DNA from: a virus
Strand: one strand, 5' to 3'
IMG/VR virus record: IMGVR_UViG_3300045938_000052
Location: 1 to 43,000 of that record
DNA length: 43,000 nt
Each line of letters starts with the position of its first letter. Positions within the stretch are counted from its first letter, which is position 1. Positions 8,775-34,400 of the stretch are shown here, in pieces. The notes below the pieces were generated by a model, which worked only from the letters and a program-made list of their open reading frames with translations, was not told the DNA's origin and searched no databases. The position numbers and the translations under genes are program-made.

Positions 8775-8776
8775 AA

Positions 8777-11700: not shown

Positions 11701-11929
11701 CGATATCACTCATGCTGAGGATATGGATAACCACGGGACAGAAAGCTATACCGTTGGTATTTCTGACATGAGCGGTGGGTGCATCCGTCACTATGCATGG
11801 GGCGATACCTATCTCCATACAGAGGGTGGTCTCCACTACCCGCTGGTCAATGGCGAGGACTTTAACTATGGCGGTGCTTTCAGCGTGCCGGGCAAGCCAT
11901 TCAAGAACGACAGCGCCAACGTCTCTTAA
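8777..11929 (+). CDS. 1050-aa multidomain protein: N-terminal coiled-coil-like segment, two tandem SGNH/GDSL hydrolase domains, and a C-terminal ~450-aa repeat/propeller-like domain
   Basis: The ATG at 8777 lies 3 nt after the previous stop. Domain 1 has GDSIDAGGG, GGLTNDI and DGVHPT. Domain 2 has GDSITAGTSG, GGSNDI and DGVHPS. The C-terminus is paralogous to 27639-29024. Confidence 0.85.
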   Translation: MAFDPQLADLDQLHQDFLALQGTVTSTEETVNLTLNQVTSAIALWLPIVVNAEALADSLDDGNGEVITPPPDPTVTGYVIEGDSIDAGGGTNSQSWPSQFATLTGFSVRNVATQGDTINSMINGFDNPGGIGAAYSSDYDKVIIGGLTNDIALDNTPLWRLKELLYGICHKAQAKGFKKIYLMTVPPRVVGTSIWNQEKEDRRIALNASMLTEFTSYGADGVIDRTAGFTTADLFDGVHPTNAGAFKIAQAVKAALTQTQQPGTITPKGVVFEGDSITAGTSGNTDPYPAQWSRLTGISSSNIAYPGDQIRSLLNNFDSQAGPKFNAQTCDIYMFNGGSNDISDNSADKNSIVDVIQLIIDKAHTAGFKVILSTILPRGFNAANEAIRTSVNQWIRTNWRNVAEGLVDFAAAITDTSGMPDGVHPSNATAAIMAAEVAKTLVASVTAGDVVNSDGSLNEANFLAIANNYWQAFDYRFGAAPTKPTGVPTYTEPVSRYMPDGSLTPPTGGDIRSYQFGNYRAGYTDFSSNEEHFIWAPDNQVKFTGVTGIQGSSTSHDCHSFKPESNWVRYLRGENQLKGVEVEYWRNHGQPNLSRPTCMGRAHGRPGWAVQSLVGFQDGFICTIGANTMYNVASTRLPAGMIPTDIAITSSNEFAIVTYWSTVDKRGGIAVLALCGLGQNMTLDSPTPNPANTNDGWWGEWEHVRWGLHNLGNFAGIKYLGKYEIPGMLAPTAASATTGYYRRGYLNANEPEGTCGNTGDWLQNEAHRQMWITGRFAGRWAKQGAVVVISKSEKKAAIINLEPLFEQITKMYFTTRERFLETTTYGYADNQYPYGFETVPAQKPQFVKMFNLESKPTACHMYSYGIINDPKRWCYVAMENGYMHTISMGGYSSFPGPNDPPDDPSQVQIIGRTFVGANPVSINQVKEKAGNKYGLLRDERDTLLVASRAECAVRWIDFNTANGTEILKLQDSRITDITHAEDMDNHGTESYTVGISDMSGGCIRHYAWGDTYLHTEGGLHYPLVNGEDFNYGGAFSVPGKPFKNDSANVS

Positions 11930-11947
11930 CCAAAACCGGATCAAAAC

Positions 11948-12871
11948 ATGAGCCAAGAGCAACTCGTACAAGCGGCCGCCCAACTGGCCAAGGATCTGCG
12001 CGACACGCGTGACGCGTATGGCGCGCGCGCCGCGGCCGTGATTGCCAGCACGTCGCAATTCCCCGCCAAGCTGGCGGAGTTCTCCAGCTTGCTCACGCGA
12101 TACGAGAATGCGCGCGATCGGATCGAGTCGGCAATGAGTGGTTCGAATCCCGGCACGGGCACCATGCTGGCTTATCTCGATTTCAGCGAGGCTGCCGATC
12201 GTGAGCGTCCGGATAATTGGATCAACAAGGTGCCGACCGGGGGCATCTATCGCAATTACGGGTCCGGCAAAGTGGCCGGCGGTCGAGGTGATCCTTACGG
12301 CCCCTTCCCGGGAATGTCGTGCATGACGGAAAGCGCGACGAATGGAAATATCGCCATTTACGGCGAGGACATCTATTCAATTCCAGATGTCGTGACATTC
12401 GAAAATGCTTTTCGTGCGGGCAACGGTGAGGGCAATATTCTGTCTTTCAGCGACATGGGTGCAATCGAAGGCGATACCTACTTTAGCGTCTACAAAATTG
12501 CGCAAGAGAATCCGGGGAAACGCCGTTTTCGTCTGACTGCAAAGGCTTTCGGCCTGTTCGATGACTTCATTACCGACGAAGTCGACGCATTGATGATGAA
12601 CGGCGAGAGCTGCTACTGGCCGAAAATGCGGCGCGAGGCAGACAACCGCTTTTCGTTGCGTGTGAACGGCAAATACCTCGGCGCCACAGACGTTCAATTC
12701 CCGGGCGTATTGCAGGGGCGGTTCGGTGCATGGGGTCTTTTCCAGCAGGATGGCTTTGGCGTCGACGGCAGCTTCCGCTGCGGCCTGGGCCTGGCCATCT
12801 GCGACAAGCGTTTGGAGAACCTCGGCACCGGCGACTATGCCGTTCCGACCGTTCGTCCCGCCTATCCCTGA
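11948..12871 (+). CDS. Hypothetical protein (307 aa) with helical N-terminus
   Basis: Clean ORF in the lower-GC block. The N-terminus MSQEQLVQAAAQLAKDLRDTRDAYG... is helical. There is no catalytic motif. Confidence 0.7.
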   Translation: MSQEQLVQAAAQLAKDLRDTRDAYGARAAAVIASTSQFPAKLAEFSSLLTRYENARDRIESAMSGSNPGTGTMLAYLDFSEAADRERPDNWINKVPTGGIYRNYGSGKVAGGRGDPYGPFPGMSCMTESATNGNIAIYGEDIYSIPDVVTFENAFRAGNGEGNILSFSDMGAIEGDTYFSVYKIAQENPGKRRFRLTAKAFGLFDDFITDEVDALMMNGESCYWPKMRREADNRFSLRVNGKYLGATDVQFPGVLQGRFGAWGLFQQDGFGVDGSFRCGLGLAICDKRLENLGTGDYAVPTVRPAYP

Positions 12872-20484: not shown

Positions 20485-23400
20485 ATGAATACTCCCACCT
20501 TGCGCGACGCCGAGCGCTATGTCGGCCGCGCCTATGTCGAGGGCGAATTCGACTGCGCCTCGCTGGCCGTGCTCGTGCAGGCCGAGCTGTTCGGCCGTCG
20601 GATCGATCTGCCGGTGGCCGCCGATCGCCACCGCGGCCGTCGCGGTCAGGCCAGCGACATCCAGCGGCTGCAGCCCGAGGTCGCCGACCTGGTCAGCGAG
20701 CCACGCACGGGCGACGCCGTCATCCTGTGGGCCCTCGTGCCCGAAGGTCTGCCGCCACTCAACCGTCAGTGGCATGTCGGTACCGTCTTCGTGCAGGGCG
20801 GCGAGACCTGGATCCTGCACTGCGCGAACGAAGCGCAGGGCGTCGCGCTCCAGCGCCTCGACCATCTGCTGCAGCTCGGCATGCACCTGGACGGCTTCTA
20901 CGCCTGGCGTGTGGCGGCACCGGCCGCGATGCTGAACCTCGCGATCGCCGCACATCCGCTGACGGGCCAGGTGGAGGTGCGCCAGGCGCTGGCCGGCCGC
21001 ACCCTTGCGGACACCCTGGCGGCTGAGGGCGTCACCGGCACCGGCTGGGTCGTCAGCGTGGGCGGACTCACGGTCCCGCCGGCGCTGTGGTCGAAGACCC
21101 GCGTGCGCGCCGGACACCTCATCGAGGCGCGATCGGTCGTGCGCAAGAAGGCGCTGGCGGTCGTTGCCGTGCTGGTGCTGAGCTACTTCACGTTCGGTGC
21201 GGGCGGCCTCGGAGCGGGCGGGCTGTTCGCCGCCGGCGGTGCGGTCGGCGGCGGGTTCCTGGCTGCTGCTGCTGTGTACGTCGGCGGCTCGATGCTGATC
21301 AGCAAGCTGCTCGCACCGAAGGCGGGCAGCGCCGGCGACAACTCGTCGAACCAGCCCGCGCCGACCTATGCGCTGCAGGGCGGTCGCAACCGCGCGCGGC
21401 CCTACGAGCCACTCTCGCTCGTCCTCGGCTACACGAAGGCGGTGCCGGACAACGCGAACCAGCCCTACACCTGGTTCGAGGGCGACGACCAGTTCCTGGC
21501 CACGATGTTCCACGCCGGCATCAACTGCCGCGCGGTCTCCGAGATCAAGCTGGGCGACACGGCCATCGAGAGCTACGAAGGCGCACAGATCAGCCGCTAC
21601 GGGTTCTCGGCGGGCAACACTGGCGTGCCGCCGATCGTCGGCACCTCGGTCGACAGCGTCGAAGGCGGGCTGCTCGACGCGCCGACCGCGCCGGGCCCCT
21701 GGGTGACGCGAACCAGCAGCCCAGGGACGGTGCAGCTGGGCGTGGACCTGGAGATGTCGCTCAGCTTCCTGAACGAGAAGGGGAAATACCAGACCGCCAA
21801 CGTCCAGGTCGAAGTGCAGGCCCGGCAGATCGGTGAGCCGCAGTGGACGGCGCTCGGAGCACCGGTCTTCCAGAGCAACAGCGCGACGCCGCTGCGGCGC
21901 ACGCTCATGTTCGTCGTGCCGTCGGGACAGTACGAAGTGCGCCTGCGCAAGCTGGCCGACGCGAACTACACCATCCCCGGCGCGAGCAACGTGGTCAGCT
22001 GGTCCGCGCTGAAGAGCTACCAGCCCGACACCGCCGACTACGGCGGCCAGCCACGGGTCAACGTCCGGTTGAAGGCGACCGGCCAGCTCAGCGGCGCACC
22101 CGACGAGATCAACTGGATGGCCTTGGCCGAGACGATGCCGTACTGGAACGGGTCGGCCTGGGTGACGGCCACCGAGCCGGGCGCTGCCGGCGTGAGCAAC
22201 CCCGGTGCGCAGATCCTGATGCTGCTGCGCGGCATCTATCGCCCGAGCGACGGCCGGCTCATCGCCGGCGCCGGCCTGGCCGACAACCGGATCGACATCG
22301 AGAGCCTCAAGGGCTTCATGGTGCGCTGCGCGGCCAAGGGCTTCCGGTTCGACAGCTTCATCCAGCAGGCGATGAACCTGCAGGATCTGCTCGAGAGCAT
22401 CGCGTCGGCCGGCCTGGGCTCGCTGTCGCGGCACTCCGGGCGCATCGGCGTGATCTGGATGGCGGAGGACCAGCCGATCGAGGGCGTCATCAACATGGCG
22501 GCGATGAAGGCCAGGTCGTTCGGTGTGCAGTACGACCTCATGGCCACGGCCGACGAGTACCAGCTCGAGTTCTTCGACGCCGACCGCGGCTGGACCTGGC
22601 AGCCGGTGCGCGTGCAGGCGCCGGGCATCGGCACGCCACAGCGCACCAGCACCGAGAACGTCCGAGGCGTTACGCGCGCCGCGCACGCCGCGGTCATCGC
22701 ACGCTTCGCGATGGGCCAGAACATCTACGGGCGCAAGTCGATCACCTTCGACATGGACCTCGAGCACCTGACGTTCAGGCGCGGCTCGGTCCTGGCCATC
22801 TCGCACGATCTGACCCAGTGGGGATACGGCGGACGCGTGGTCGCCGTCATCACCGGCGCCGGTCAGTTCTCCGTGGAGGTCGACGAGCCGGTGCCGGTGG
22901 CGCTGCCGGCGACCCGGACACTGGGCTTGCGACTCTCGGGCGAGCAGCAAATGCGCGTCTTCAACGTCGCCTCCGTCTCGGCCAACGGCCGCGTGCTCAC
23001 CGTGGCGCAGGGCTGGCCCGGTGGCGCGCTGCTGCCCGGAGTGGGTAGCGCCGTACAGGACACCGTCTGGCTCTACGACTTCAAGGCGACGCCAGGCTAC
23101 CGGGTGCGGGTCACCAGCATCGAGCCAGTCGACAACATGGGCGGAGCCCAGGTCACGGTGGTGCCCGAGTCGCCCGAGTTCTGGAACTACGTGCTCAACG
23201 GCGCCTACGAGCCGCCGCCGAACAACAGCTTGCTGTCGGAGCAGCTGCCGGTGGCCAGCAACCTGCGCATCTCGCGTGCCCGGGTTCGGCAGGGCGAAGG
23301 ATGGGTGCACGAGCTGACTGCCGTGTTTGACGTCGTAGGCAATTACGACCATGCCCAGCTGTGGACTGCCAGCGGCGGCATGCCGCTGTCGCAGGTGGGC

Positions 23401-25665
23401 GGCTCGATCTTCGGCACCCGGGTCACGTGGACCGTCGCGGTCGACCAGTCCTGGACTGTGGAGATCCGGCCGTTCGATGCGCTGGGCCGCATGGGAACCC
23501 GCGTCTCCGACGTCTTCGTCGACCCGAGCGAAAGCGTGGTAGGTGTGCTGAACTTCTTCGTCCGCATCGAGGACGCCGGCGCGGTGGCGCATTGGTCGGC
23601 GCCGGCGGGCCTGTCGTCGATCGACTGGGCCGTGACGCAGATTCGCACCGGCGCTACCTGGGAGGGTGGGCTGGTGGTGTTCGAAGGTCGCACCGATCGC
23701 GCGCTCCTCGGATGGCTGAAGGCCGGCACGCAGCGCTTCTGGGCCGCCCATCGCAACAGCGCCGGCGACTGGTCGATGCCGGTCACCTACGCGCTCGAGA
23801 TCCTCCCACCGATCCAGCCCATCGTCGATGGGAAGGCCTGGCGCGACCAGGTCGAGCTCGCCTGGCAGGAATGCACGAGCACGCAGCCGCTGCGCGGATA
23901 TGAGATCCGTGTCGGCCCGATTTTCGCGCAGGCGCAGATCATCTCCTTCGTCACCGGCCTCGGCTACGTCCGCACCGAAGCCGAGCCAGGCAAACGGTTG
24001 TATTGGGTCATCGCTGTCGACATGGGCGGCAACCGCGGCGCGGCGGGCTACAAGGAAGTCGAGACGCTGCCGAGTATCGGCGAGGCGCTCGATCAGCTCC
24101 AGGAAGGACTCGACGAGCAGATCGATGAGATCCGCGACTTGGTGAACGCGAACGGCTCGGCGGTGCGCGAAGTGGTCGAGGTCTCCGAGCAGCTCGAGGG
24201 CAAGCTCTCCGCCAGCTACACGCTCGCGGTGTCGGCCGGAAAGCGAGTCTCAGGACTGCGCGCTTTCGCCGATGAGCAGGAAAGCTCGCTGGTGTTCTTG
24301 GCGAATCGTTTCGCGTTCGCGATCGGAGACGCCGACCAGGCGAAGCAGCTGCTGACCCTTGGCACCGTGAACGGAACGCCATCGGCCGGTCTGGCAGGCA
24401 ATTTCTATCTCGACGGCGTGCTGAAGTCGCGCATGGTCGACGCAGAGCAGATCCTCGGCACGCACATCCGCGGCGACGAGATCGAGGCGCGCCATGTAAA
24501 AACAGGGTCGCTCACGACTGACCTCTTGAATGTGGGCATGGGCAGCAACTTGTTGGCGAACTCGACCTGGCTGAACCGCCAGATCGGCAGTCAGTTGCCG
24601 CAGGGCTGGAATGTCTTCAGCACCATCGACCCGAGCGTGGCTCAGGTGCTCCGCGTTGGCGACGCTTCAGGTCAGTTCCCCGAGTGGATGCCCGAAGGTG
24701 CAGAGGGCACCTGCCTGGTCCAGCTCGATGCCAACCCGAGCACGCTCGCCGTGCTTTACAGCGACACGCCGGCCATCGGCGGTAAGCGGTACGAGGCGAG
24801 CGCTTACGCGGGGGCACACCGCTGCAGGATGTCGGTGGGCATCGAGTTCTACGACCAAAGCGGCGGCAATCTGCCGGCCGCGCTGGAGAATTCCGTCGAT
24901 CACAACGGCAACACCGATGGCAGCAGGCCGGGCGGCCGTTTGCTGTCCGCCTTCAAGCGCGTCGGCTGCTTTGCGATTGCACCGCCCACGGCGGCCAAGG
25001 TGCGCATCACGCTGTATCGCTCGGACGCGACCACGCAGACGAGCTACGCGTTCTACCTGAAGCCGATGCTCGCCGAGGCGAGCCCGCACCAGTCCGTGTT
25101 TTCGCCATATCAGCCGAGCGGAATCGGAACGCAGATCACGCCGACAGGAATTACGACTCCCAGCCTCTCGGCGCTCAGCGGAAATATGGGCACGCTGTCT
25201 GCGGGTCAACTCGACATCCACAGTGACGCCATCGGCGGTGGCGGGTGGGGGTGGGTCCGCTCGCCAGGCAAGTGGAGGGACGGCAATCACGGCTGGATTT
25301 TGGCGCGTCACGCCAATGGCGACATGTTCGTCGACTTCACGATCGGTGGGCTGCAATTCGCGATGCAGAAGCTCGGTGGCGTCGACACAGCGTATATGGA
25401 TTGGGGCGGCATCGCGATGGACAACGCCGGCAATCTGTCCGTGCGCGCGCTGAACGTGATCGGGACTGGGAACATCGTCCCGGGCTCTGCGACTTTGCCC
25501 GCATTTGCCTCGGCGGCAAACCTTGTTGTCATGCGGGCAACTCCCGCGGACAGAGCTAGTGACTTGAACATCTACAACTACACCTCGGGCGGTGCGCCAA
25601 TACGTTTTTCAATTGGCGCAGTCTCAGCGTCGCAATCGCCGGGTGAGCCTGGAGGAGGGGAATAA
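20485..25665 (+). CDS. Tail tip / host-specificity protein: single 1726-aa fusion of K-like (NlpC/P60-type), I-like and J-like regions
   Basis: The N-terminus has FDCASL...WHVGTV...ILHCAN. Next comes a ubiquitin-like segment with the hydrophobic Gly-rich stretch RKKALAVVAVLVLSYFTFGAGG. It is followed by YALQGGRNRARPYEPLSLVLGY... (J-like) and a C-terminal jelly-roll-like region. Confidence 0.88.
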   Translation: MNTPTLRDAERYVGRAYVEGEFDCASLAVLVQAELFGRRIDLPVAADRHRGRRGQASDIQRLQPEVADLVSEPRTGDAVILWALVPEGLPPLNRQWHVGTVFVQGGETWILHCANEAQGVALQRLDHLLQLGMHLDGFYAWRVAAPAAMLNLAIAAHPLTGQVEVRQALAGRTLADTLAAEGVTGTGWVVSVGGLTVPPALWSKTRVRAGHLIEARSVVRKKALAVVAVLVLSYFTFGAGGLGAGGLFAAGGAVGGGFLAAAAVYVGGSMLISKLLAPKAGSAGDNSSNQPAPTYALQGGRNRARPYEPLSLVLGYTKAVPDNANQPYTWFEGDDQFLATMFHAGINCRAVSEIKLGDTAIESYEGAQISRYGFSAGNTGVPPIVGTSVDSVEGGLLDAPTAPGPWVTRTSSPGTVQLGVDLEMSLSFLNEKGKYQTANVQVEVQARQIGEPQWTALGAPVFQSNSATPLRRTLMFVVPSGQYEVRLRKLADANYTIPGASNVVSWSALKSYQPDTADYGGQPRVNVRLKATGQLSGAPDEINWMALAETMPYWNGSAWVTATEPGAAGVSNPGAQILMLLRGIYRPSDGRLIAGAGLADNRIDIESLKGFMVRCAAKGFRFDSFIQQAMNLQDLLESIASAGLGSLSRHSGRIGVIWMAEDQPIEGVINMAAMKARSFGVQYDLMATADEYQLEFFDADRGWTWQPVRVQAPGIGTPQRTSTENVRGVTRAAHAAVIARFAMGQNIYGRKSITFDMDLEHLTFRRGSVLAISHDLTQWGYGGRVVAVITGAGQFSVEVDEPVPVALPATRTLGLRLSGEQQMRVFNVASVSANGRVLTVAQGWPGGALLPGVGSAVQDTVWLYDFKATPGYRVRVTSIEPVDNMGGAQVTVVPESPEFWNYVLNGAYEPPPNNSLLSEQLPVASNLRISRARVRQGEGWVHELTAVFDVVGNYDHAQLWTASGGMPLSQVGGSIFGTRVTWTVAVDQSWTVEIRPFDALGRMGTRVSDVFVDPSESVVGVLNFFVRIEDAGAVAHWSAPAGLSSIDWAVTQIRTGATWEGGLVVFEGRTDRALLGWLKAGTQRFWAAHRNSAGDWSMPVTYALEILPPIQPIVDGKAWRDQVELAWQECTSTQPLRGYEIRVGPIFAQAQIISFVTGLGYVRTEAEPGKRLYWVIAVDMGGNRGAAGYKEVETLPSIGEALDQLQEGLDEQIDEIRDLVNANGSAVREVVEVSEQLEGKLSASYTLAVSAGKRVSGLRAFADEQESSLVFLANRFAFAIGDADQAKQLLTLGTVNGTPSAGLAGNFYLDGVLKSRMVDAEQILGTHIRGDEIEARHVKTGSLTTDLLNVGMGSNLLANSTWLNRQIGSQLPQGWNVFSTIDPSVAQVLRVGDASGQFPEWMPEGAEGTCLVQLDANPSTLAVLYSDTPAIGGKRYEASAYAGAHRCRMSVGIEFYDQSGGNLPAALENSVDHNGNTDGSRPGGRLLSAFKRVGCFAIAPPTAAKVRITLYRSDATTQTSYAFYLKPMLAEASPHQSVFSPYQPSGIGTQITPTGITTPSLSALSGNMGTLSAGQLDIHSDAIGGGGWGWVRSPGKWRDGNHGWILARHANGDMFVDFTIGGLQFAMQKLGGVDTAYMDWGGIAMDNAGNLSVRALNVIGTGNIVPGSATLPAFASAANLVVMRATPADRASDLNIYNYTSGGAPIRFSIGAVSASQSPGEPGGGE

Positions 25666-25667
25666 AC

Positions 25668-25877
25668 ATGGCAGCCACGACGACGACGTGTCGCGTCTAC
25701 CGGAACAACGTCGAGATCTTCCGGGTTCAATTCCAAGGGGCGACTGAGGTCTCGTGGACTCCTCCCGATGAACAGCCGGCAAACTATCGGTTTGAGTATT
25801 CCGCGGACGGCGCGTCCCCGGAAGTTCCGGGACAAATTGCGCGTCGCTATGCGGGCCTGGTGGGGCATCGGCGATGA
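25668..25877 (+). CDS. Small hypothetical protein (69 aa)
   Basis: The ATG lies 3 nt after the J stop, and the 3' end overlaps the next gene by ATGA. This packing suggests translational coupling. Confidence 0.55.
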   Translation: MAATTTTCRVYRNNVEIFRVQFQGATEVSWTPPDEQPANYRFEYSADGASPEVPGQIARRYAGLVGHRR

Positions 25878-26476
25878 AATTTGCAACGCTCTATGACGCG
25901 ACGACGGGCGTTATCGCTTGCACGACATCGATCCAGTTGCCGCTCGGTGTTGATGCGGATTCGGCAACTGCCGAGCAGTGGGCCGCAGCCATCGCCGATC
26001 TTGAGCAGGCGGCCGGCATGCCCTGCGTGCTCGGCGAGCCGAAGCCGAATCAGCGTGTGCATGCCGGTGTGTTTGTCGACGTCGTCCCGGAGCTCCCGTC
26101 GCTCGAGGACGCGAAGCTCGCGAAGTGGGAGCTGCTGAAGGCCGAACGCGATCGCCGCGAAACGCTGGGCTTCACGTACATGGGCAAGCTCCTGCAGAGC
26201 GATGAGCGAAGCGTGCTCAGGATCAACACTCGGGCGCAGGCTGCGCGCGATGCACTGGGCGCCGGCGATGAGTACCAGACGTACTGGAAGGCTACCGACA
26301 ACTCGCTCCTCCTCCTGGACGCACAGCAGATGGCTGACATGCCGCGCGCCCTGTCCGACTATGCGAACGGCCTGCACGTCCTTGCCGAAGGGCTTCGCCA
26401 GCAACTGCTCAGCCCGGCCACGAGCACTCTTGAGATGGTCGCTGCTGTGCAGTGGCCACCGACAAACCCCCAGTAA
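25874..26476 (+). CDS. Tail fibre assembly/chaperone-like protein (DUF4376-like)
   Basis: Sequence is ...LEDAKLAKWELLKAERDRRE...YQTYWKATDNSLLLLDAQQM...LRQQLLSPATSTLEMVAAVQWP. Confidence 0.7.
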   Translation: MKFATLYDATTGVIACTTSIQLPLGVDADSATAEQWAAAIADLEQAAGMPCVLGEPKPNQRVHAGVFVDVVPELPSLEDAKLAKWELLKAERDRRETLGFTYMGKLLQSDERSVLRINTRAQAARDALGAGDEYQTYWKATDNSLLLLDAQQMADMPRALSDYANGLHVLAEGLRQQLLSPATSTLEMVAAVQWPPTNPQ

Positions 26477-26494
26477 GAAAAGTTCACCCAACCA

Positions 26495-26517
26495 ACCCGC
26501 TTCGGCGGGTTTTTTTA
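26495..26517 (+). terminator. Strong rho-independent terminator after the tail genes
   Basis: Stem ACCCGC/GCGGGT with a TTCG tetraloop, followed by T7. Confidence 0.85.
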
Positions 26518-26534
26518 TGTCCGAAGGAACCACC

Positions 26535-29027
26535 ATGCTCCGACTGAAAACACTTCTCCCGCTCGCCGCGCTTCTGAGCGCTGCGGCGATCGCAGCGCCG
26601 CCGGCGGTGAAGCCCGCTGGCGGGCTTATCGCCGTCGCCTTCGCCAAGTCCACCCACTTCACACTCACCGCGTCGACAACGGTGAGCTATGGCAACGGTG
26701 AGGTCTGGACACAGAAAGATCTGGGAAAGGGCATTTACCGCTGTGGCCCTGACACGTTCGGCCTTGCCTCGTCGGTAGCGACGGGCGGCGAGCAGTGTCG
26801 CTACACCCGCAAGGGCGGCGGTCTGGTCGTCGTCGCGCCGCCGGTCGTCGTGCCCACGCCAGCACCAGCGTTGGTGAAGATCGCGGCAGAGTTCGCCTCG
26901 TTCAACCTGTCCGCGCCGACGATCGTCACCTACGGCCTGAACGGCAAGACCGTGGGCAAGGCGCTGCCGGCCGGCACGCATACCTGCGGCAACGAGACGT
27001 TCGGCAGCGATCCGCTGCCCACCGTCGCGAAGGAGTGCACGGCGCCGGCGACCGCCACTGAGGTTTCACCCAGCAAGCCGGCCGACCCCGTCGTCGTCGC
27101 GCCGGCGCCGTCGACCGGCGCCTCAATCCGCGAGCCCAGCGAGTACCGGCGCGTTGCCGCCCTCATGGGGACGCAGGCAGGCATGGACTATCTCTACGGC
27201 CAGGCGTCGTCGAAGGTGCTCACGAACCTCTACCCAAGCGTGCCGGCCAGCAAGCCGATGAACATGGTCTCGATCCAGAACCCGAACGGGCTGGGGAACC
27301 GCGGCTGCTCCTGGACGGGCTGGTGCGGCACGTCCCAGTTCGGCGAGCTGGAGTACGCCTCCGGCGACTACAGCTCCTCGGTCGCCAACTTCGGCTACAT
27401 CCCGTTTGCCGTCCCGGACCGGACGATCTTCAAAGCCAACCGCTACTGGGGGATCGGTGCGATCCAGCAGATCTCGGTGGCCCACAGCACGTTCTCGGTC
27501 GTGCCGGAGCCGTCCTGGACCGTCTACGAGGGCGAGACGCGCAACAACGCGCACAACGAAGAGCAGCTCATGCGCCAGATCGAGGGCACGGCGGCGCCGG
27601 GCACCAATGGCAAAGACATCTTCGAAGGCAAGCCCGTGGCCTGCGCTCGAGGCTACGGCCGCGGCGGCTGGATCAACAACGTGCTGTGCGTGCAGAGCAA
27701 CGGCTCGATCACGTCGCATGGTTCAAACACCTCGCGCAACAACATGCTCGTGCGGCTGCCGGCCGGCGCAGGCACGCCGACGGCTATCTCCGTCACCAAC
27801 AGCGGCGAGTTCGCCTTCGTGACGACCTGGGACACGGTCGCCTTGCGCGGGAAGATCTGGACCATCGGTCTGAAGGACGCGTGCCAGGACTGCCGTCCGG
27901 AGGACGAGTCCAAGTGGACCGCGAACTGGGGTCAGTGGAACCGCGTCTACGTGGGCTTGCCGAACCTCGGCAACTACGTCGGCGGCAAGGTGCTCGGCCC
28001 GGTCGACCTGCCCGAAGACATCATCGCGCCGACGGCCATCTCGGTGACCACCGGGCGGTCCTCGGAGCGCCATGACGGCTACGAGACCGTGATGCGCCTG
28101 TGGGACGAGCCCATCGACGCCGCCTCGCAGCGCGCTCGCTACTTCGGCGGCGACTTCAAGAACGCGATCGCCAACACCGGTATGGCCGTCGTGATCTCGA
28201 AGGGCGAGAAGCGTGCAGCCTTCGTCGACCTGAAACCACTGTTCACGCAGGCACGCCAGAACTGGTTGGCCTCGATGAGCGACGACGAGTTCAAGAGCCG
28301 GGTCGCCGCCCGTGGTGATGGCGACAGCCAATTCCCGAAGGGCTTCGCGTCCCTGCCGTCGCAGAAGCCGGTCGTCATCAAGACGATGGCGTTCGAGTCG
28401 GCGCCGACGTCGCTGCGCACGATGCTGACTGCACCCTTCCGCAGCGTGATCGGCACGGAGGACGGCAACCTGCACGTCGTCGACCTGGGCGCCAACTACC
28501 TGAACCAGACCAACGCAGCAGCGGTCTCGGGCTCGCCCAGCGACATCAAGGAGCTCTCGACGTTCAACGTCGGCGGCAACCCCACCAGCATCGCGTTCGT
28601 GAAGGGCAAGTCGTCGCAGCGCCCAGACGGCCGCCGCGCGCTGTGGGGTTACGAGAAGGACGACTCGTTCCTGTGGGCGGTCTCGCGCGAGGAGAAGAAG
28701 GCGTCGATGATCCAGTGGAATGCCGACCGCACCGCCTTCTCCGGCGCGTACCTGGCAGTCCAGGACGCCCGCATCAGCGACCCGATCGTGATCGAGGACG
28801 CGGACAACCACGGCACCGAGAGCTACGTGGCCACCATCGGCAGCGGCAGCAGCCTCTTCAACGTCCTGTACGGCCCGATCATCGCCTACACCTACAAGGA
28901 CGCGAAGAAGCCGTTCTGCCAGCCGGACGCGCCCTGCGGCCCGATCACTCCGAAGTCGATCATGTTCGGTGGCGAGTTCAAGGTGCCGGGCAACGTGTTC
29001 TACGTCGGCGGCGGCAACATCAATTGA
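26535..29027 (+). CDS. 830-aa secreted (Sec signal peptide) protein; two Cys-containing N-terminal repeats plus a C-terminal domain paralogous to 8777..11929
   Basis: GAAGGAA precedes ATG 26535. The signal peptide is MLRLKTLLPLAALLSAAAIA/APP. Shared motifs with the paralog are RLPAG..P..I..T.S.EFA.VT.W, VVISK.EK.AA...L.PLF and ED.DNHGTESY. Confidence 0.85.
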   Translation: MLRLKTLLPLAALLSAAAIAAPPAVKPAGGLIAVAFAKSTHFTLTASTTVSYGNGEVWTQKDLGKGIYRCGPDTFGLASSVATGGEQCRYTRKGGGLVVVAPPVVVPTPAPALVKIAAEFASFNLSAPTIVTYGLNGKTVGKALPAGTHTCGNETFGSDPLPTVAKECTAPATATEVSPSKPADPVVVAPAPSTGASIREPSEYRRVAALMGTQAGMDYLYGQASSKVLTNLYPSVPASKPMNMVSIQNPNGLGNRGCSWTGWCGTSQFGELEYASGDYSSSVANFGYIPFAVPDRTIFKANRYWGIGAIQQISVAHSTFSVVPEPSWTVYEGETRNNAHNEEQLMRQIEGTAAPGTNGKDIFEGKPVACARGYGRGGWINNVLCVQSNGSITSHGSNTSRNNMLVRLPAGAGTPTAISVTNSGEFAFVTTWDTVALRGKIWTIGLKDACQDCRPEDESKWTANWGQWNRVYVGLPNLGNYVGGKVLGPVDLPEDIIAPTAISVTTGRSSERHDGYETVMRLWDEPIDAASQRARYFGGDFKNAIANTGMAVVISKGEKRAAFVDLKPLFTQARQNWLASMSDDEFKSRVAARGDGDSQFPKGFASLPSQKPVVIKTMAFESAPTSLRTMLTAPFRSVIGTEDGNLHVVDLGANYLNQTNAAAVSGSPSDIKELSTFNVGGNPTSIAFVKGKSSQRPDGRRALWGYEKDDSFLWAVSREEKKASMIQWNADRTAFSGAYLAVQDARISDPIVIEDADNHGTESYVATIGSGSSLFNVLYGPIIAYTYKDAKKPFCQPDAPCGPITPKSIMFGGEFKVPGNVFYVGGGNIN

Positions 29028-29052
29028 CGTCGTCGGATAGGAGGAAACGCCT

Positions 29053-29565
29053 GTGAACGTCAAGCACCTGAGTGCTGATCTCCTGCGGGGATGGGCCGAG
29101 AAGGCCATCCCCGTCGCCGACCAGCAGGACCGACTCGAGGTCCGCCTGCTCTCGCTGTACATCACCTGTTCGTTCATTAACGACCAGCTGGGCCCGATCA
29201 CCTACGTGCTTAAGCTGCCGCCGTCGATGCTCTACAAGGTCGCCACCCTGGCGCACACCTCCTGGCTGGTCGGTGCGATGTTCGCCGCTGCGGTGGTGCT
29301 CGCACTGCCTCATGCGATCGCGCTGATGGTCTTTCCGAGGACGCTGGCCGTTCGGTGGCCACGCAAGTGCGCGACGTTGGCAGCCAGCATCGTGATGGTG
29401 ACCTGGGGATACCTGGCGGTGCTGGCCATGCCGATCGACGCCGGGCCGCTCTTCTGGCTCTACATCCGCCAGGCAATCGACTCTGCCGGGCTGGCCTTCA
29501 TCTACGCCATCTCCCTCAACGCGCAGCTACTGCGCGCCCTCGTCCATAAAGGCCGGTCTCCATGA
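29053..29565 (+). CDS. Membrane protein (3 predicted TM), lysis-cassette associated
   Basis: GTG follows AGGAGGAAA. The hydrophobic helices are SWLVGAMFAAAVVLALPHAIALMVF, LAASIVMVTWGYLAVLAM and LAFIYAISL. Confidence 0.7.
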   Translation: MNVKHLSADLLRGWAEKAIPVADQQDRLEVRLLSLYITCSFINDQLGPITYVLKLPPSMLYKVATLAHTSWLVGAMFAAAVVLALPHAIALMVFPRTLAVRWPRKCATLAASIVMVTWGYLAVLAMPIDAGPLFWLYIRQAIDSAGLAFIYAISLNAQLLRALVHKGRSP

Positions 29566-30038
29566 AGCACAAGCTGGCAGTCAACTCGCTCATGTTCTTC
29601 TGGGTGTGCTGCGTCTCGCGCATGGCCTACGCGTCGACCTTCCTCCAGGAAGTCCAGATCTTCGACTACCCGTCGCTGCTCGCGGCGGCCGTGGGCGGCC
29701 TCTTCGGTGGCTTGCTCAAGACGATCTACACGCTCGCCACCGACAGCCGCGCGGTCTTCGAGATCCTGATGGAAGCGCGCAAGGACCTGGTGCTGTCGTT
29801 CCTCGCCGGCGGCGCCGCCTACATCGCGATGATCATGATCGAGTCGAAGTGGCCCGGCTCGGTCACGCGCGAGATCCGCTTCGGCGGTGTGCTGGTCGCG
29901 GGCTGGACGCACTCGGCCATCTTCGTGCTGGCCGAGCGCTTCGGTCGACGCAGGATCGATGCGGAGTTCGCACGTCTGCACGACGGCGCGCCGCTGGACC
30001 CGCCGAGCTCGGCCGCGGTCCCTCTCAGCAAGGACTGA
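29562..30038 (+). CDS. Membrane protein, holin-like (3-4 TM)
   Basis: ATGA overlap. The helices are LLAAAVGGLFGGLL, LVLSFLAGGAAYIAMIMI and GGVLVAGWTHSAIFVLA. It lies directly upstream of the endolysin. Confidence 0.65.
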   Translation: MKHKLAVNSLMFFWVCCVSRMAYASTFLQEVQIFDYPSLLAAAVGGLFGGLLKTIYTLATDSRAVFEILMEARKDLVLSFLAGGAAYIAMIMIESKWPGSVTREIRFGGVLVAGWTHSAIFVLAERFGRRRIDAEFARLHDGAPLDPPSSAAVPLSKD

Positions 30039-30040
30039 CG

Positions 30041-30619
30041 ATGGATACATCACTCCTCGCGCGCTGCACCGGCGCGCTGCTTCCGTTCGCCCAGAAGTTC
30101 GCCGAGCCGCTGACGGCCGCGATGGACCTCTACGCGATCGACACGCCCCTCCGGCAGGCAATGTTCCTGGCCAACGTCGGCCACGAGTCGGCCCGGCTGC
30201 GGTACACGACCGAGCTGTGGGGACCGACGCCCGCGCAGCGCGGCTACGAAGGCCGGCGCGACCTGGGCAACGTGAAGCCCGGCGACGGCAGCCGATATCG
30301 CGGCCACGGCCTCATTCAGACCACCGGCCGCGCCAACCATGCGGCCGTGCGCGATCGCCTGCGCAAGCGGTTCCCGGACGTGCCGGACTTCGAAGCCGAG
30401 CCGACGCGCCTGGCGGAGACGCGCTGGGCATGCCTGTCGGCCACCGACTACTGGGACATGCGCGGCCTCAACAGCTGGGCCGACCGAGGCGACTTCGACG
30501 GCGTCGTCGACCTCATCAACCGTGGCCGCAAAACGGCACCCATCGGCGACAGCAACGGCTGGGTCGAGCGCGTGCGGCTTTATGCAGACGGCCGGAAGGC
30601 CTTGGGGATGGACAAATGA
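30041..30619 (+). CDS. Endolysin, glycoside hydrolase family 19 (chitinase-like)
   Basis: Sequence is ...RQAMFLANVGHESARLRYTTE...YRGHGLIQTTGRANH..., the GH19 phage lysin signature. Confidence 0.9.
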   Translation: MDTSLLARCTGALLPFAQKFAEPLTAAMDLYAIDTPLRQAMFLANVGHESARLRYTTELWGPTPAQRGYEGRRDLGNVKPGDGSRYRGHGLIQTTGRANHAAVRDRLRKRFPDVPDFEAEPTRLAETRWACLSATDYWDMRGLNSWADRGDFDGVVDLINRGRKTAPIGDSNGWVERVRLYADGRKALGMDK

Positions 30620-31188
30620 TCGATATCGACTGGAAGAAATTCGTGGGTGGTCTCGCGCCCGTGCTCGGCCTGGCCCTTGGAGGGCCGCTGGCACAGAGTG
30701 CGGTGAAGGTGCTTGCCAGCGCCGTCCTCGGCGACGACACCGCCAGCGAGGCTGACGTCGCTGCCGCCATCACCGGCGGGCAGCTCAGCGGCGAGCAGAT
30801 CGTCGCGATCAAGACCGCCGAGCAGGCCTTCGCCGTGCGCATGCACGAGCTCGACGTCGACCTGGTGAAGATCAACCAGTCGGCCGAGGACGCGATGCTG
30901 CGCGACGTCCAGGATGCCCGGGCGCGCCAGGTGGCCACCAAGGACTACATGCCGCAGATCATCTTCTTCCTCTTCCTGGCCATCTATGTGGCCGAGGTCG
31001 CGATGTTCTTCTTCGGGCGGATGCCGACGGACGAATACGTGCGCGCCCTGATGACGCGTGCATTCGGAACGGTGGAGGCGGGGGTCGTGGGCGCGGTCGC
31101 CTACTTCATCGGCTCGAGCCGTGGCTCGAAGAACTCGGGCGACGCGATCCGAAAGATCGCGGAGCAGGCCGGCGGCCGCGCTGGCTGA
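30616..31188 (+). CDS. Holin-like protein of the '3-TM GTA holin' (DUF3154) type
   Basis: ATGA overlap with the endolysin. Sequence is MIDIDWKKFVGGLAPVLGLALGGP..., then a helical middle, then IIFFLFLAIYVAEVAMFFFG and VVGAVAYFIG. Confidence 0.7.
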   Translation: MIDIDWKKFVGGLAPVLGLALGGPLAQSAVKVLASAVLGDDTASEADVAAAITGGQLSGEQIVAIKTAEQAFAVRMHELDVDLVKINQSAEDAMLRDVQDARARQVATKDYMPQIIFFLFLAIYVAEVAMFFFGRMPTDEYVRALMTRAFGTVEAGVVGAVAYFIGSSRGSKNSGDAIRKIAEQAGGRAG

Positions 31189-32154: not shown

Positions 32155-32471
32155 GGCGCCGTGGTGTCGTCGAAGGCACCAGGGATGCACCACCAGATCT
32201 GAGGCACTGCCGGCTTTCCGTACGCTGGCACCTCCTCCTGGCCATAGATCAATATCCCGCCGCGATCGACCTTTTTCACGTGTGCGTGAATGAGGGGTTC
32301 GATCGCATCGGACTCGAGGCGACTGTTCTTAAACAGTCGCGCGCTGATCTGTGGATAATGCCGACGCGAGTCCTGCCCAAAGATCAGCCAACCGACGTGC
32401 GGCCGGTTCTTTATGATGTCGCTGGGCAGCTTTTGCCCAGCTCGGCGGAGAAGATAGACGGTGCATTGCAC
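32151..32471 (-). CDS. Hypothetical protein (106 aa), second gene of the minus-strand accessory cassette
   Basis: GTG start with a poor SD. GC3 is reasonably high in frame. The 3' end converges on and overlaps the dam stop by 4 nt. No recognisable motif. Confidence 0.4.
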   Translation of the reverse strand: MQCTVYLLRRAGQKLPSDIIKNRPHVGWLIFGQDSRRHYPQISARLFKNSRLESDAIEPLIHAHVKKVDRGGILIYGQEEVPAYGKPAVPQIWWCIPGAFDDTTAP

Positions 32472-32509
32472 TGTGAAAACCTAAGGAAGTACGGCGTACG
32501 ACGCCTCTC

Positions 32510-33250
32510 CTAGTCGACTGGTGGCAATTTGAACTCCGGCCAGAAACGGGGAGAAAGGCGTTCATGTGTTTCAGTAAGAGACCAATTCGGCAGCTCTGCA
32601 AGTCCCCCATCGAAAGCGACTTTCACGCCGCCAGCGCGGAAATGTGGATACTTGTATACGATTGGATCCATTAATGATTGCATCAATGTCCCAATGTTGT
32701 CTTTTCTAGGGTCTGTTGCTGCGTAATGGGCTGAAACTTTATTTCGCCAAGCGTGGATTTCGGGTATTGCTTCGATTACATACTCGCCACAATGCGTTCT
32801 AACTTTGTTCGCAATTGACCTATCTAGCAAGGAGCTGAAGGCAAGTTTTTCCGAGATAAGGAATTCTATGAGTCCAAGTGCCCTTAAATAATTTACTAAA
32901 GTCAGAGCGTACCAATTAAAAGCGTTAGGAATTATAGCTGGATATATTAATCCATACGCCAAGACAGTATGTTTCGCGTGTGGATCTTTTCTAACTGCCT
33001 CTATTTCATTTTCTCTAACAGTTTCTGCGAGCATATGTAGTCCCGCATAGCCTTGAGCAACAGCACGAAGATTGATAGGTGGATTATTTTTATCGAACCT
33101 GATATTTCTTTGCCAATCGACCGTAATAAATTCTGTCTCACTGGTTTCAGGCATGTCCGGATTGCTTATCGTTATGACGCGTGCATCGTAGTACGGCGGG
33201 GCCATCCTTACCAATGTTCTAGACGAAAGTCGAATGCTCGACTCACGCAT
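32510..33250 (-). CDS. AT-rich accessory (moron) gene: hypothetical protein with an Rx5H (HEPN-like) motif; candidate defence or restriction effector
   Basis: The ORF lies in a sharply AT-rich block; 32881-32940 has 20 G+C out of 60 by my count. The motif WRNKVSAH is encoded at 32726-32746. The start is ambiguous (ATG 33250, 33205 or 33154). Confidence 0.7.
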   Translation of the reverse strand: MRESSIRLSSRTLVRMAPPYYDARVITISNPDMPETSETEFITVDWQRNIRFDKNNPPINLRAVAQGYAGLHMLAETVRENEIEAVRKDPHAKHTVLAYGLIYPAIIPNAFNWYALTLVNYLRALGLIEFLISEKLAFSSLLDRSIANKVRTHCGEYVIEAIPEIHAWRNKVSAHYAATDPRKDNIGTLMQSLMDPIVYKYPHFRAGGVKVAFDGGLAELPNWSLTETHERLSPRFWPEFKLPPVD

Positions 33251-33261
33251 CCGGTGCCATG

Positions 33262-33447
33262 ATCCCGCAAAAATCCCGCACATCACTCGGGAACCCGCAT
33301 GCAGCTTGAGTTTGCGTTCCGGCCTCGGGCACCAATTAGCCGGACTCACATGGAAAGAGTGGACGTTTGGCAGCAGGCGGCTACAGTGACGGACTTTCGC
33401 GGGCAGATAGCTCCCCGCGCAGATTCCCGCACACGATCCCGCACACA
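33262..33447 (+). promoter_or_regulatory. attP-proximal array of direct TCCCGCA(C/A)A repeats (candidate integrase arm-type or regulatory sites)
   Basis: Copies occur at 33262-33270, 33273-33282, 33292-33300 (AACCCGCAT), 33411-33421 (degenerate), 33423-33433 and 33436-33447. All are in the same orientation. The last copy abuts the int ATG. Confidence 0.5.
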
Positions 33448-34400
33448 TGGCATACGTCCGGAAATTCAGAGACGGCTGGCGAGTTGAAGTCCAACGGCAC
33501 GGCCACCGGGCCAGCCACGTCGCCAAGACGAAGCGCGAGGCTCAGGCCTGGGGCGTCAAGAAAGAGCTGGAGCTCGACTCACTCCATTCGACGGGTGGGC
33601 ACACCTTCGGCGAGGCCGCCGAGCACTACCTGAAAACCGTCAGCACGCAGAAGGAGAGCGTGGACTGGGAGCGAAGGCGGTTCGACGCATTCCGCAGCTA
33701 CTTCGGCGACCAGATGGAGTTGGCCAGCATCACGTCCGCGGAGATCGGAACATGGCGGGACTGGCGCCTTTCGGGCGATGAGGCGACTGGCCGAGGTGCG
33801 GTGAGCGGGTCGACTGTGAAGCGAGAAATTAACCTGCTTCGGAACATGTTCAGCATCGCGCGGCAGGAATGGAAGTGGATCACCCACCATCCATTCGAAG
33901 GAGTCAGGCTGCCGGCCGACAACGATCCGCGGCATCAATTGTGGCGCTGGCAGCAGATCAAGCGGGTGCTGCGCTCCGACCGCGGCGGCAAGACTGGCCA
34001 GGTCATCAAGGCCTTTCACATTGCCCTGCACACCGGCCTGCGTCTGTCTGAGGTGCTCAGTGGAACGTTCGACGCATCACGCCGGGTGTTCGTGCTTGCG
34101 CGGAGCAAGGGAGAGGGGACCCGTCAGGTTCTCGTTCCGATCCCTCGACGCGGTTTGAAATTGCTGCCTGCAACCTTCACTGTCGATGCGAACGAGGCGA
34201 GCACGCTGTTCGCAAGGTTGACGAAGCAGCTGCTGATCGAGGGCCTGACGTTCCACGACTCGCGAGCTACGGCCCTGACGCTCTTGTCACGTCGAATGGA
34301 CGTCCTAACGCTCGCGCGGATCAGTCGCCACAAAGACCTTTCGATCTTGATGAACACCTACTACCGCGAAAGAGCGGAGGACATCTCGGCGCGGATCTGA
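33447..34400 (+). CDS. int: Tyrosine integrase
   Basis: The N-terminus is MAYVRKFRDGWRVEVQRHG.... Catalytic residues appear in HTGLRLSE, FHDSRAT and RISRHKDLSILMNTYY. Confidence 0.93.
   Translation: MAYVRKFRDGWRVEVQRHGHRASHVAKTKREAQAWGVKKELELDSLHSTGGHTFGEAAEHYLKTVSTQKESVDWERRRFDAFRSYFGDQMELASITSAEIGTWRDWRLSGDEATGRGAVSGSTVKREINLLRNMFSIARQEWKWITHHPFEGVRLPADNDPRHQLWRWQQIKRVLRSDRGGKTGQVIKAFHIALHTGLRLSEVLSGTFDASRRVFVLARSKGEGTRQVLVPIPRRGLKLLPATFTVDANEASTLFARLTKQLLIEGLTFHDSRATALTLLSRRMDVLTLARISRHKDLSILMNTYYRERAEDISARI

Follow-up and report, generated by a model that had tools for sequence, protein, structure and literature searches.

Phages encode exported accessory proteins of several kinds. Llp of phage T5 and Cor of phi80-, N15- and T1-like phages are small lipoproteins (~60–80 aa) that are encoded beside host-range genes, bind FhuA, and protect against superinfection and against the loss of progeny on debris. 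Phage polysaccharide depolymerases and deacetylases, soluble or attached to the tail, such as tailspikes and the SGNH fibres of the G7C gp63.1 type, are β-helix proteins whose module also exists in a free form that acts away from the particle, as a by-product of the virion gene. The Shiga-toxin genes of lambdoid phages (stxAB) lie 5′ of the lysis genes S-R-Rz and are described as co-transcribed with the late genes, with the toxin released at lysis (PMC8065619). Here we describe a gene (26535–29027, + strand) on a 43,000-nt stretch of viral DNA (positions 1 to 43,000 of IMG/VR record IMGVR_UViG_3300045938_000052; hereafter the window) that encodes a predicted exported protein of 830 aa, which we call the target and which combines lectin-like repeats with a β-propeller. 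The reading that we favour, and hold to be possible though somewhat short of probable, is that the target is a late, lysis-linked exported factor acting on an envelope glycan that it shares with a second propeller protein of the same phage, a non-exported SGNH esterase (the SGNH protein).

The window resembles the depolymerase and deacetylase systems in that a putative glycan module is joined to SGNH esterases on a protein that has no signal peptide, in that a free version of this module, with a presumed site of action off the particle, is encoded as well, and in that CBM-type partners occur elsewhere in the propeller family. It differs from them in fold (a seven-bladed propeller is predicted, not a β-helix), in that a gene of its own, equipped with a Sec signal, encodes the free version, which is thus no by-product of a virion gene, and in that the activity is a prediction. 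The propeller matches no phage tail-spike family in PHROGs. The placement of the gene recalls stxAB: it encodes a signal peptide, lies directly 5′ of the lysis cassette, is not closed by a terminator of its own and presumably shares the transcript of the late genes, and its periplasmic product would be released by lysis, as is described for the toxin (PMC8065619). However, the target has no sequence or fold relation to Stx and does not have a toxin fold, and, unlike the toxin, it has a paralog in the same phage and recurs across morphotypes. With Llp and Cor the target shares export and a place beside host-range genes, and a lipoprotein version of its family is present in one phage locus; in contrast to them, it is 830 aa long, is not itself a lipoprotein, would be directed at glycan, and is encoded in the lysis operon. 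By analogy, the target would work most like a free phage depolymerase or an Llp/Cor-style receptor-destroying or receptor-blocking factor, with its gene placed like stx. By the features compared, it does not classify as a moron, a lipoprotein blocker or an SGNH hydrolase, and the Pfam search did not place it in Gal_Lectin. The kind to which it belongs, phage-encoded exported accessory proteins, is known; what sets it apart is the conserved position at the lysis cassette, the occurrence in a single genome of one module with and without an export signal, and the large unannotated family. Below, P-numbers denote homologous proteins and L-numbers homologous loci.

The target carries a predicted Sec signal peptide

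The target lies within a longer frame (26202–29027), and its product begins MLRLKTLLPLAALLSAAAIAAPP. The first 20 residues (26535–26594, + strand) read as a Sec signal peptide of the signal peptidase I (SPase I) type with a predicted cut at AIA/AP, MLRLKTLLPLAALLSAAAIA/AP, in agreement with an earlier note on this DNA that had recognised such a signal. The peptide can be divided into MLRLK, with R3 and K5 as basic residues of the n-region, a hydrophobic core of 13 residues, TLLPLAALLSAAA, and IA, after which AP follows the predicted cut. Thus, the n-region is charged, the length of the h-region falls within the 10–15 residues expected of an SPase I substrate, small residues occupy −3 and −1 (A-I-A), and +1 is not Pro. 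No twin-Arg motif was found in the N-terminus, nor was a lipobox, in which a signal peptide closes with [LVI][ASTVI][GAS]C; no Cys occurs upstream of residue 70. Signal peptides or lipoboxes are kept in the close homologues P0002, P0003, P0004, P0005 and P0010 and in those at L010 and L006: the L010 homologue carries a signal peptide, the lipobox reads LVAC in P0004 and LGGC in L006, and the homologue at the phage locus L006 is a lipoprotein (MKLYALILAAALTLGGC).

The assignment of the start codon matters here, as the earlier note had recognised that a true start downstream of the hydrophobic segment would undo the export proposal. ATG 26535 and its Shine-Dalgarno sequence, GAAGGA (26522–26527, + strand; 7 nt 5′ of the ATG), are unchanged in the related prophage L001, which speaks for the start upstream of that segment. 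The public gene call for the same protein, P0001 (836 aa), starts six codons early (26517–26534), at an ATG that abuts the T-run of a terminator; this ATG, 26517, is not conserved in the L001 comparison, which supports ATG 26535 and indicates that the start of P0001 was called too early. Homologues of the target are 40–67% identical to it, and its composition is native, with a GC content of 66.4% and a GC3 of 0.88–0.90, like the tail genes. That the target is a Sec-exported protein is well supported as a prediction from these features; its predicted mature parts are two disulfide-type repeats, Pro/Ala-rich linkers and a ~630-aa seven-bladed propeller.

The gene lies at the edge of the lysis cassette in five phages

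The target gene is separated from the tail operon by an intrinsic terminator (26494–26516, + strand) with a 7-bp GC-rich stem, a GCTTCGGC-type loop and a run of seven T. Its hairpin, AACCCGCTTCGGCGGGTT (26494–26511), together with the T-run, occurs once in the window and not at all in shuffled sequences; the strong terminator reported before the gene is therefore real. The last gene of the tail operon, just before the terminator, encodes a tail-fibre-assembly-like or tail protein (25874–26476, + strand; phrog_2837, phrog_1807). On the other side, 25 nt 3′ of the target, begins the gene for a holin-like membrane protein of 170 aa with two to three hydrophobic helices (29053–29565, + strand), a homologue of which precedes the L010 lysis genes. 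It is followed on the same strand by a second holin-like membrane protein of 158 aa (29562–30038; hydropathy and L010 comparison), a GH19-type endolysin (30035–30619; phrog_181 endolysin, E 2.7e-48), and a 190-aa membrane protein (30616–31188; phrog_1544, function unknown) with homologues in the L004 and L010 lysis cassettes. We found no terminator between the target and the holin genes, and a scan for the sigma-70 consensus alone found no promoter-like site in 25600–29700. The features that would mark a moron in Hendrix's sense, namely a promoter of its own, a downstream terminator and a deviant composition, are thus all lacking. The earlier description of the gene as lying between the tail and lysis modules is correct as to position but understates the linkage, given the 25 nt to the holin-like ORF and the lack of an own promoter. 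Because the gene has no promoter of its own and is, judging from the order of genes, the first cistron of the lysis transcription unit, the target would be made late, together with the lysis proteins.

Comparison with other phages extends this linkage. In L001, a myovirus-type prophage (Baseplate_J) in a Janthinobacterium metagenome-assembled genome, a tail-fibre-assembly gene is followed by the identical hairpin, the target homologue, two small ORFs, a GH19 endolysin gene that is 80% identical in DNA to that of the window, and a phrog_1544-like protein. The window and L001 become homologous precisely at the hairpin, which suggests a recombination joint between modules; the tail genes 5′ of it are unrelated. 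The same 18-nt hairpin recurs in three phages that have diverged elsewhere, at 26494–26511 of the window, at L001 9960–9977 and at L010 3911–3928, where it precedes the holin genes rather than the propeller gene that it precedes in the window and L001; the terminator is therefore a conserved boundary between tail and lysis modules and not a moron boundary. In L010, where the hairpin comes after the tail gene, the homologue closes the lysis unit, and a strong terminator stands behind it. The L004 homologue has tail genes on one side and ORFs of 185 and 167 aa, with a GH108 endolysin, on the other; that of L005 has large virion proteins on one side and ORFs of 134 and 112 aa, with a GH24 lysozyme and an RzoQ o-spanin, on the other. 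In both, the homologue is flanked by no terminators and by practically no spacers. In five phages that have at least three types of endolysin (the window, L001, L004, L005 and L010), the propeller gene thus opens or closes the lysis cassette, and it is contiguous and co-oriented with the holin and endolysin genes in this conserved position. A sixth phage context (L006/L007) has the lipoprotein version of the propeller protein.

These observations bear on the proposal, made in the earlier note, that the exported protein serves in receptor masking, superinfection exclusion or lysogenic conversion. In its prophage-expressed form, this explanation holds that the target is made in the lysogen, exported to the envelope and masks or destroys a receptor glycan there, which would keep this phage and its relatives from adsorbing to the lysogen. 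The phage is called temperate from its integrase (33447–34400), the target is predicted to be exported, and L006 has a lipoprotein version; moreover, the gene stands right after the tail-fibre and tail-fibre-assembly genes, which is the position of cor and llp in other phages, and the upstream terminator insulates it from the tail operon. Expression from the prophage is harder to accommodate. No sigma-70-like promoter is present between the terminator and the ATG or nearby, and, as no terminator precedes the holins, such expression would risk co-expression of holin and endolysin. In L004 and L005 the gene is wedged between a tail gene and the holin genes, and no signals accompany it. L005 resembles a DNA-polymerase-A phage, and the 19.6 kb available from it contain no integrase. 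The native composition of the target gene is not that of a moron. The adjacency to lysis genes in five phages and the lack of an own promoter favour a late, lysis-coupled factor over a lysogenic-conversion moron, and we consider the prophage-expressed factor unlikely; masking or destruction of a receptor is plausible as a late function.

The same position could instead reflect a dedicated lysis accessory, a periplasmic enzyme that completes lysis, independently of any receptor, by attacking an envelope layer left in place by holin, endolysin and spanin, such as lipopolysaccharide (LPS)/outer-membrane linkages, periplasmic glucans or capsule anchoring. Such a protein might well be the first or last cistron of the lysis unit, as the gene is in five phages, and it would be exported to the compartment of its substrates, as the target is predicted to be; furthermore, the searches run on the window's cassette (29053–31188) turned up no recognisable i-spanin/o-spanin pair or u-spanin. 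However, L005 carries the gene although it has an o-spanin (RzoQ), no peptidoglycan- or lipid-hydrolase domain was detected in the target, most phages lyse without such a protein, and the family is abundant in non-phage chromosomal contexts. We therefore regard a lysis accessory as quite unlikely.

The C-terminal domain models as a β-propeller

The C-terminal ~630 aa of the target (27135–29024, + strand) model as a seven-bladed β-propeller with insertions. An AlphaFold (AF2) model made from 18 sequences (pLDDT 74, pTM 0.73) is all-β with insertions and consists of serial blocks of β-strands from aa ~280 to 830, the blades not having been counted on the coordinates. A Foldseek search of the PDB with this model gave 633 matches at E≤1e-3, and all of the top 50 listed are propellers; the best of these, with a TMt (TM-score normalised to the target) of 0.70, are the seven-bladed YbhE-type propellers 1ri6 and 6nau. 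Lactonase-type propellers as a group (YbhE/6-phosphogluconolactonase 1ri6 and 6nau, together with 3u4y and 3hfq) are the best fold matches, at a TMt of 0.61–0.70, but their identity to the target is 7–9% with no shared motifs, the target domain is about twice as long and has large insertions, and they are cytoplasmic enzymes. Against BFVD, Foldseek returned generic WD40 and lactonase propellers and nothing more specific.

The propeller family, which is marked by the motifs GYGRGGW, GSNTS, SKGEKRAA and EDxDNHGTES, is large and unannotated. The target had no match in Pfam, PHROGs, NCBIfam, PADLOC or PDB sequences; a profile of 57 diverse members gave only noise against PDB sequences; the target and the SGNH protein had no match among 50,697 phage records (tblastn, megablast); and neither these two proteins nor their neighbours matched the PADLOC models of anti-phage defence. 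We did not find the family or its arrangement described in the papers searched. A word-indexed protein search recovered 17 relatives only, whereas an exhaustive profile search recovered 1824 clusters (at 50% identity) at E≤1e-3 and 258 at E≤1e-30, in which the propeller is almost always C-terminal. Among the 57 diverse members, the partner domains are SGNH (six), ricin-B (two), PA14 (two), CBM6, CBM35, collagen, Calx-beta and Ig-like domains, and the phage fibre or J anchors Gp80, Rcc01698_C and Ig_J. One member, P0062, consists of a signal peptide, CBM6/35 and the propeller with no other part, a layout like that of a carbohydrate-active enzyme with the propeller as its catalytic module. The partner domains, together with the rhamnose-lectin-like repeats described below, point to a glycan substrate, and the propeller would bind, and probably process, polysaccharide.

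N-terminal repeats with a possible lectin-like role

Two Cys-pair repeats precede the propeller, as the earlier note had observed. Target aa 31–93 and 112–173 are 37% identical over 57 aa (E 5e-8), and a hidden Markov model (HMM) built from the two repeats delimits units of ~48 aa with one Cys pair each, somewhat shorter than the ~55 aa first noted. Repeat 1 (aa 41–89, C70/C88; 26655–26801, + strand) is degenerate and has lost the FGDPxxGxxK motif; repeat 2 (aa 122–169, C151/C168; 26898–27041, + strand) keeps it as FGSDPLPTVAK and may be SUEL/rhamnose-lectin-like. The HMM found 73 units in 32 family proteins, with one to six per protein and the consensus sFTLtxxTtVsYGangxfxqKtLxxGTYxCxdxfFGDPxxGvxKaCY.

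When the repeat pair was modelled alone (pLDDT 77), the top PDB matches in Foldseek were the rhamnose-binding lectin SUL-I (5h4s, E 0.27) and the latrophilin-type rhamnose-binding lectin (RBL) domain of LAT-1 (8suf_H, probability 0.97, TMt 0.39). A profile of 41 repeat units matched 5h4s alone in a meaningful way, through FGDPCxGxYK in all three of its domains (whole-sequence E 0.021). Because fold search and sequence profile agree, a SUEL-lectin-like, carbohydrate-binding role of the repeats is a reasonable lead. The likeness to the SUEL or rhamnose-binding lectins (Gal_Lectin; SUL-I 5h4s, latrophilin RBL) lies in the FGDPxxGxxK consensus, spaced as in the three SUL-I domains, in the best Foldseek match of the repeat model, and in the tandem arrangement of units. 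However, the target units are ~48 aa long as against ~95 aa and have one disulfide pair as against four, the scores are not significant, and neither the N-terminal 222 aa of the target nor its repeat-rich homologues match Pfam Gal_Lectin (PF02140) at E≤1. BFVD matches 11, 14 and 16 had suggested an Apple domain for the repeats; this assignment was rejected, as a model of the repeats alone did not bear it out and the PDB pointed to SUEL lectins.

Exported and anchored propellers fall largely into separate clades

The SGNH protein (8777–11929, + strand; 1050 aa) consists of an N-terminal coiled coil (MAFDPQLADLDQL...), two SGNH/GDSL esterase domains and a propeller (nt 10193–11923), and it has no signal peptide. 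Its Lipase_GDSL/Lipase_GDSL_2 matches cover two stretches (E 6e-22), whereas the target matched neither family in the Pfam search. BLASTP between the two window stretches (26535–29024 and 8774–11926) gave 192 identities over 637 positions (30%, E 2e-61), aligning target aa 217–829 with SGNH protein aa 474–1050 (nt 27183–29021 with 10193–11923); the C-terminal ~615 aa of the target are thus homologous to the C-terminus of the SGNH protein. The earlier note had called the two copies clearly paralogous on the basis of four aligned peptide pairs, all of which fall within this alignment, and had begun the shared block in the target at nt ~27639 (to 29024); it starts ~450 nt further upstream, at 27183. 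Homology therefore stands, but close paralogy does not, as the identity is only 30% and the two copies belong to ancient separate clades. P0002, P0003 and P0004 share 67%, 55% and 53% of their residues with the target, as against 30% for the SGNH copy, and the exported relatives at 53–67% identity include chromosomal proteins.

Examination of the N-termini of ~150 representatives yields two classes. Members of the exported class begin with a signal peptide or lipobox, followed by runs of Gly, and many of them are chromosomal (Variovorax, Janthinobacterium); under a strict signal-peptide heuristic, 69 of the 153 family members of full length count as exported, and many more have a lipobox and then a Gly run. 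Members of the anchored class have no signal peptide and share a recurrent coiled-coil start (MAFESEVADLN, MAYESQV..., MSFESQITDL..., and the start of the SGNH protein given above). The combination that defines the anchored class, no signal peptide and a MAFExxVxDLN-like coiled coil, is present in the SGNH protein and absent from the target. In a neighbour-joining tree of the propeller domains the two classes are largely apart: the SGNH protein groups with anchored proteins, including the SGNH protein of L001, and the target groups with exported proteins, the exception being P0035, which has an anchored-type N-terminus and falls among the exported proteins. Cys richness was tried as a marker of periplasmic disulfides in the exported clade and rejected, since it does not discriminate: the classes overlap, the propeller of the SGNH protein has nine Cys, and many entries with 'no signal peptide' are mis-called starts. 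Because the exported and anchored clades are separate and the window holds one of each, the target and the SGNH copy are, as judged from their sequences, deep paralogs brought together in one genome; a recent local duplication is ruled out by the 30% identity, the differing GC content and the separate clades.

The family's anchored members raise the question of whether the target itself could be a virion tail fibre or spike, its hydrophobic stretch being either non-functional as a signal or an anchor. The gene does follow a tail-fibre-assembly-like gene at the end of the tail module, and the family includes fusions to Gp80, Rcc01698_C and Ig_J anchors. Yet the signal peptide is canonical and conserved across homologues, with lipoprotein variants, the target lacks the conserved coiled-coil N-terminus of the anchored class, the terminator separates it from the tail operon, and the L010 copy lies after the lysis genes. 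A virion role for the target is, in our judgement, highly improbable.

The SGNH protein is part of a cassette of three genes. It is preceded by a 158-aa ORF (8298–8774, + strand), a candidate adaptor that travels with the SGNH-propeller gene and is 45% identical to its L001 equivalent, which follows Baseplate_J, and it is followed by a 307-aa ORF (11948–12871, + strand) as the third member, which matches an L001 ORF at 23% identity (E 5e-12). The SGNH gene and the 307-aa ORF form a low-GC island (57% vs 66%) between the head genes and the head-tail adaptor. In L001 the same three genes as in the window's cassette (8298–12871) occur in the same order 3′ of Baseplate_J. From its sequence context, the cassette looks like a portable fibre or spike module for different virion architectures. 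A narrow alignment of the anchored class found 2 loci only in IMG/VR. Exported and SGNH-anchored copies co-occur in two phages, the siphovirus of the window and the myovirus-type L001; an obligatory pairing of the two was considered and is ruled out by phage loci with a single copy in the available sequence.

Cellular relatives of the exported class

A scan of species-representative genomes found 49 loci of the exported propeller, mostly in Variovorax, several genomes of which have at least 3–4 copies. The other genera are Xenophilus, other Comamonadaceae, Janthinobacterium, Polyangium and Hymenobacter, and two tandem lipoprotein copies occur in Xenophilus/Comamonadaceae. Between 11 and 15 loci, which hold an orthologous copy, share transketolase, GAPDH and aminopeptidase as neighbours (tkt-gap-pepP). 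P0004 (L002) and P0007 (L003) lie in syntenic non-phage loci with genes for a 2-hydroxyacid dehydrogenase, TctC and RraA. A tRNA-Pro(GGG) gene at L002 9848–9924 stands directly 5′ of P0004, in the order pheST-ihfA-merR-tRNA-Pro-P0004, and the P0004 gene may be a remnant of an integrated element; however, the downstream synteny of 2-Hacid_dh, TctC and RraA is common to L003. No substrate is suggested by any of these chromosomal neighbourhoods. The exported propeller is thus a sizeable core-genome family that has gone unannotated. A metagenomic locus (L008/L009, 2–6935) holds three tandem propeller-family genes (at least 582, 886 and 689 aa) followed by several DUF285 genes, which is a local expansion of the family in that organism.

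These relatives give substance to a further explanation, in which the target is host-derived cargo, a bacterial periplasmic or secreted (lipo)protein caught in the late operon and released at lysis as a public good or exoenzyme. In the tree the target falls inside the exported clade, its closest relatives include chromosomal genes in the syntenic non-phage loci L002 and L003, and Variovorax and Xenophilus genomes carry several copies each, with 11–15 loci beside tkt/gap/pepP; Stx, too, is described as encoded on the late transcript and set free when the cell lyses (PMC8065619). A passive capture does not readily explain why the position next to lysis genes is conserved in five otherwise different phages, which argues for a role relevant to the phage, or the co-occurrence with an anchored paralog in two phages, and no benefit of such cargo can be named. 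Cargo of this kind seems improbable to us, to about the same degree as the prophage-expressed factor.

A proposed role in late infection

In the reading that we favour, that of a late, lysis-linked factor directed at a shared envelope glycan, the target would collect in the periplasm late in infection and be freed at lysis. It would then bind, and probably cleave or process, an envelope polysaccharide (O-antigen, exopolysaccharide (EPS) or capsule) of the same kind as that addressed by the non-exported, probably virion-borne SGNH-esterase-propeller protein. Removal or masking of this glycan on the dying cell, on debris and in the neighbouring matrix would aid the escape of progeny and avoid unproductive adsorption; any late superinfection exclusion would follow as a side effect. 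Both the occurrence of an exported beside an anchored copy in the window and L001 and the conservation of the three-gene SGNH cassette fit the idea of a shared glycan.

A more specific version, which we regard as rather doubtful, would make the two copies a two-compartment system of this phage group, with the SGNH-fused copy on the particle for adsorption and the exported, lectin-tagged copy, made from the lysis operon, as a dedicated receptor-destroying or receptor-masking enzyme. On this version, phages would have their own equivalent of the haemagglutinin/neuraminidase balance, lysis cassettes would gain a new regular component, and a first function could be given to the bacterial exported (lipo)proteins of this family, which number more than 1800 sequence clusters. 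The earlier note had likewise seen the same fold in two compartments; the propeller is indeed encoded twice, with and without an export signal, but the presence of the SGNH protein on the virion is itself a prediction.

Several points weigh against the favoured reading. The signal peptide was called by direct reading and a hydropathy heuristic, and a Sec signal takes a protein only as far as the periplasm, not through the outer membrane. Late expression is read from gene order. The lectin assignment of the repeats is below significance (E 0.02–0.3, TM 0.39), and repeat 1 has lost the motif. Any enzymatic or binding activity of the target is a prediction: its fold matches are generic propellers, the structure and profile searches gave no match to a CAZy family, and no CAZy propeller (PL22/24/25/42, GH145 or sialidase) is among the top 50 listed. 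The chromosomal homologues adjoin housekeeping genes (tkt, gap, pepP; pheST-ihfA) and not polysaccharide loci. Finally, the pairing of exported and anchored copies is not general, as L005, L010, L011, L061 and L062 each have a single copy in the available sequence.

If the favoured reading is correct, the lysis cassettes of some Burkholderiales phages would gain, beside holin, endolysin and spanin, a fourth class, an exported glycan-directed protein with the envelope or debris as its target. It would represent a genetically separate route to 'free depolymerase' activity, driven by a signal peptide, and would provide a testable handle on a large group of propellers for which Pfam, NCBIfam and PHROGs offer no model and of which no structure has been solved. 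The window would also constitute a natural experiment in pairs, since its genome carries the module once with an export signal and once without. Should this reasoning fail, the target would be a clean case of a host-type exported protein captured into a late operon.

Further features of the window

The window is the genome of a temperate siphovirus-type phage of 65% GC. Its genes run from portal, protease and major head protein through head-tail adaptor, major tail protein and tape measure to a 1726-aa J-like protein, the tail-fibre-assembly-like gene, the terminator, the target, the lysis genes, a DNA methyltransferase and the integrase. In the search of phage records, the J-like tail protein alone places the phage near Xp10-like siphoviruses. 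In this single 1726-aa ORF (20485–25665), two proteins that Xp10-like phages encode as 'minor tail protein' and 'central tail fiber J' are fused: it matches both, at 37% identity over aa 8–1011. Its C-terminal ~700 aa matched nothing among the phage records. GC content is lowest, at ~52%, in the stretch 32200–33450, and a minus-strand ORF of up to 338 aa (32510–33526) lies there between the DNA methyltransferase and the integrase. Such a position, beside the attachment region, is a classic site of morons or defence genes.

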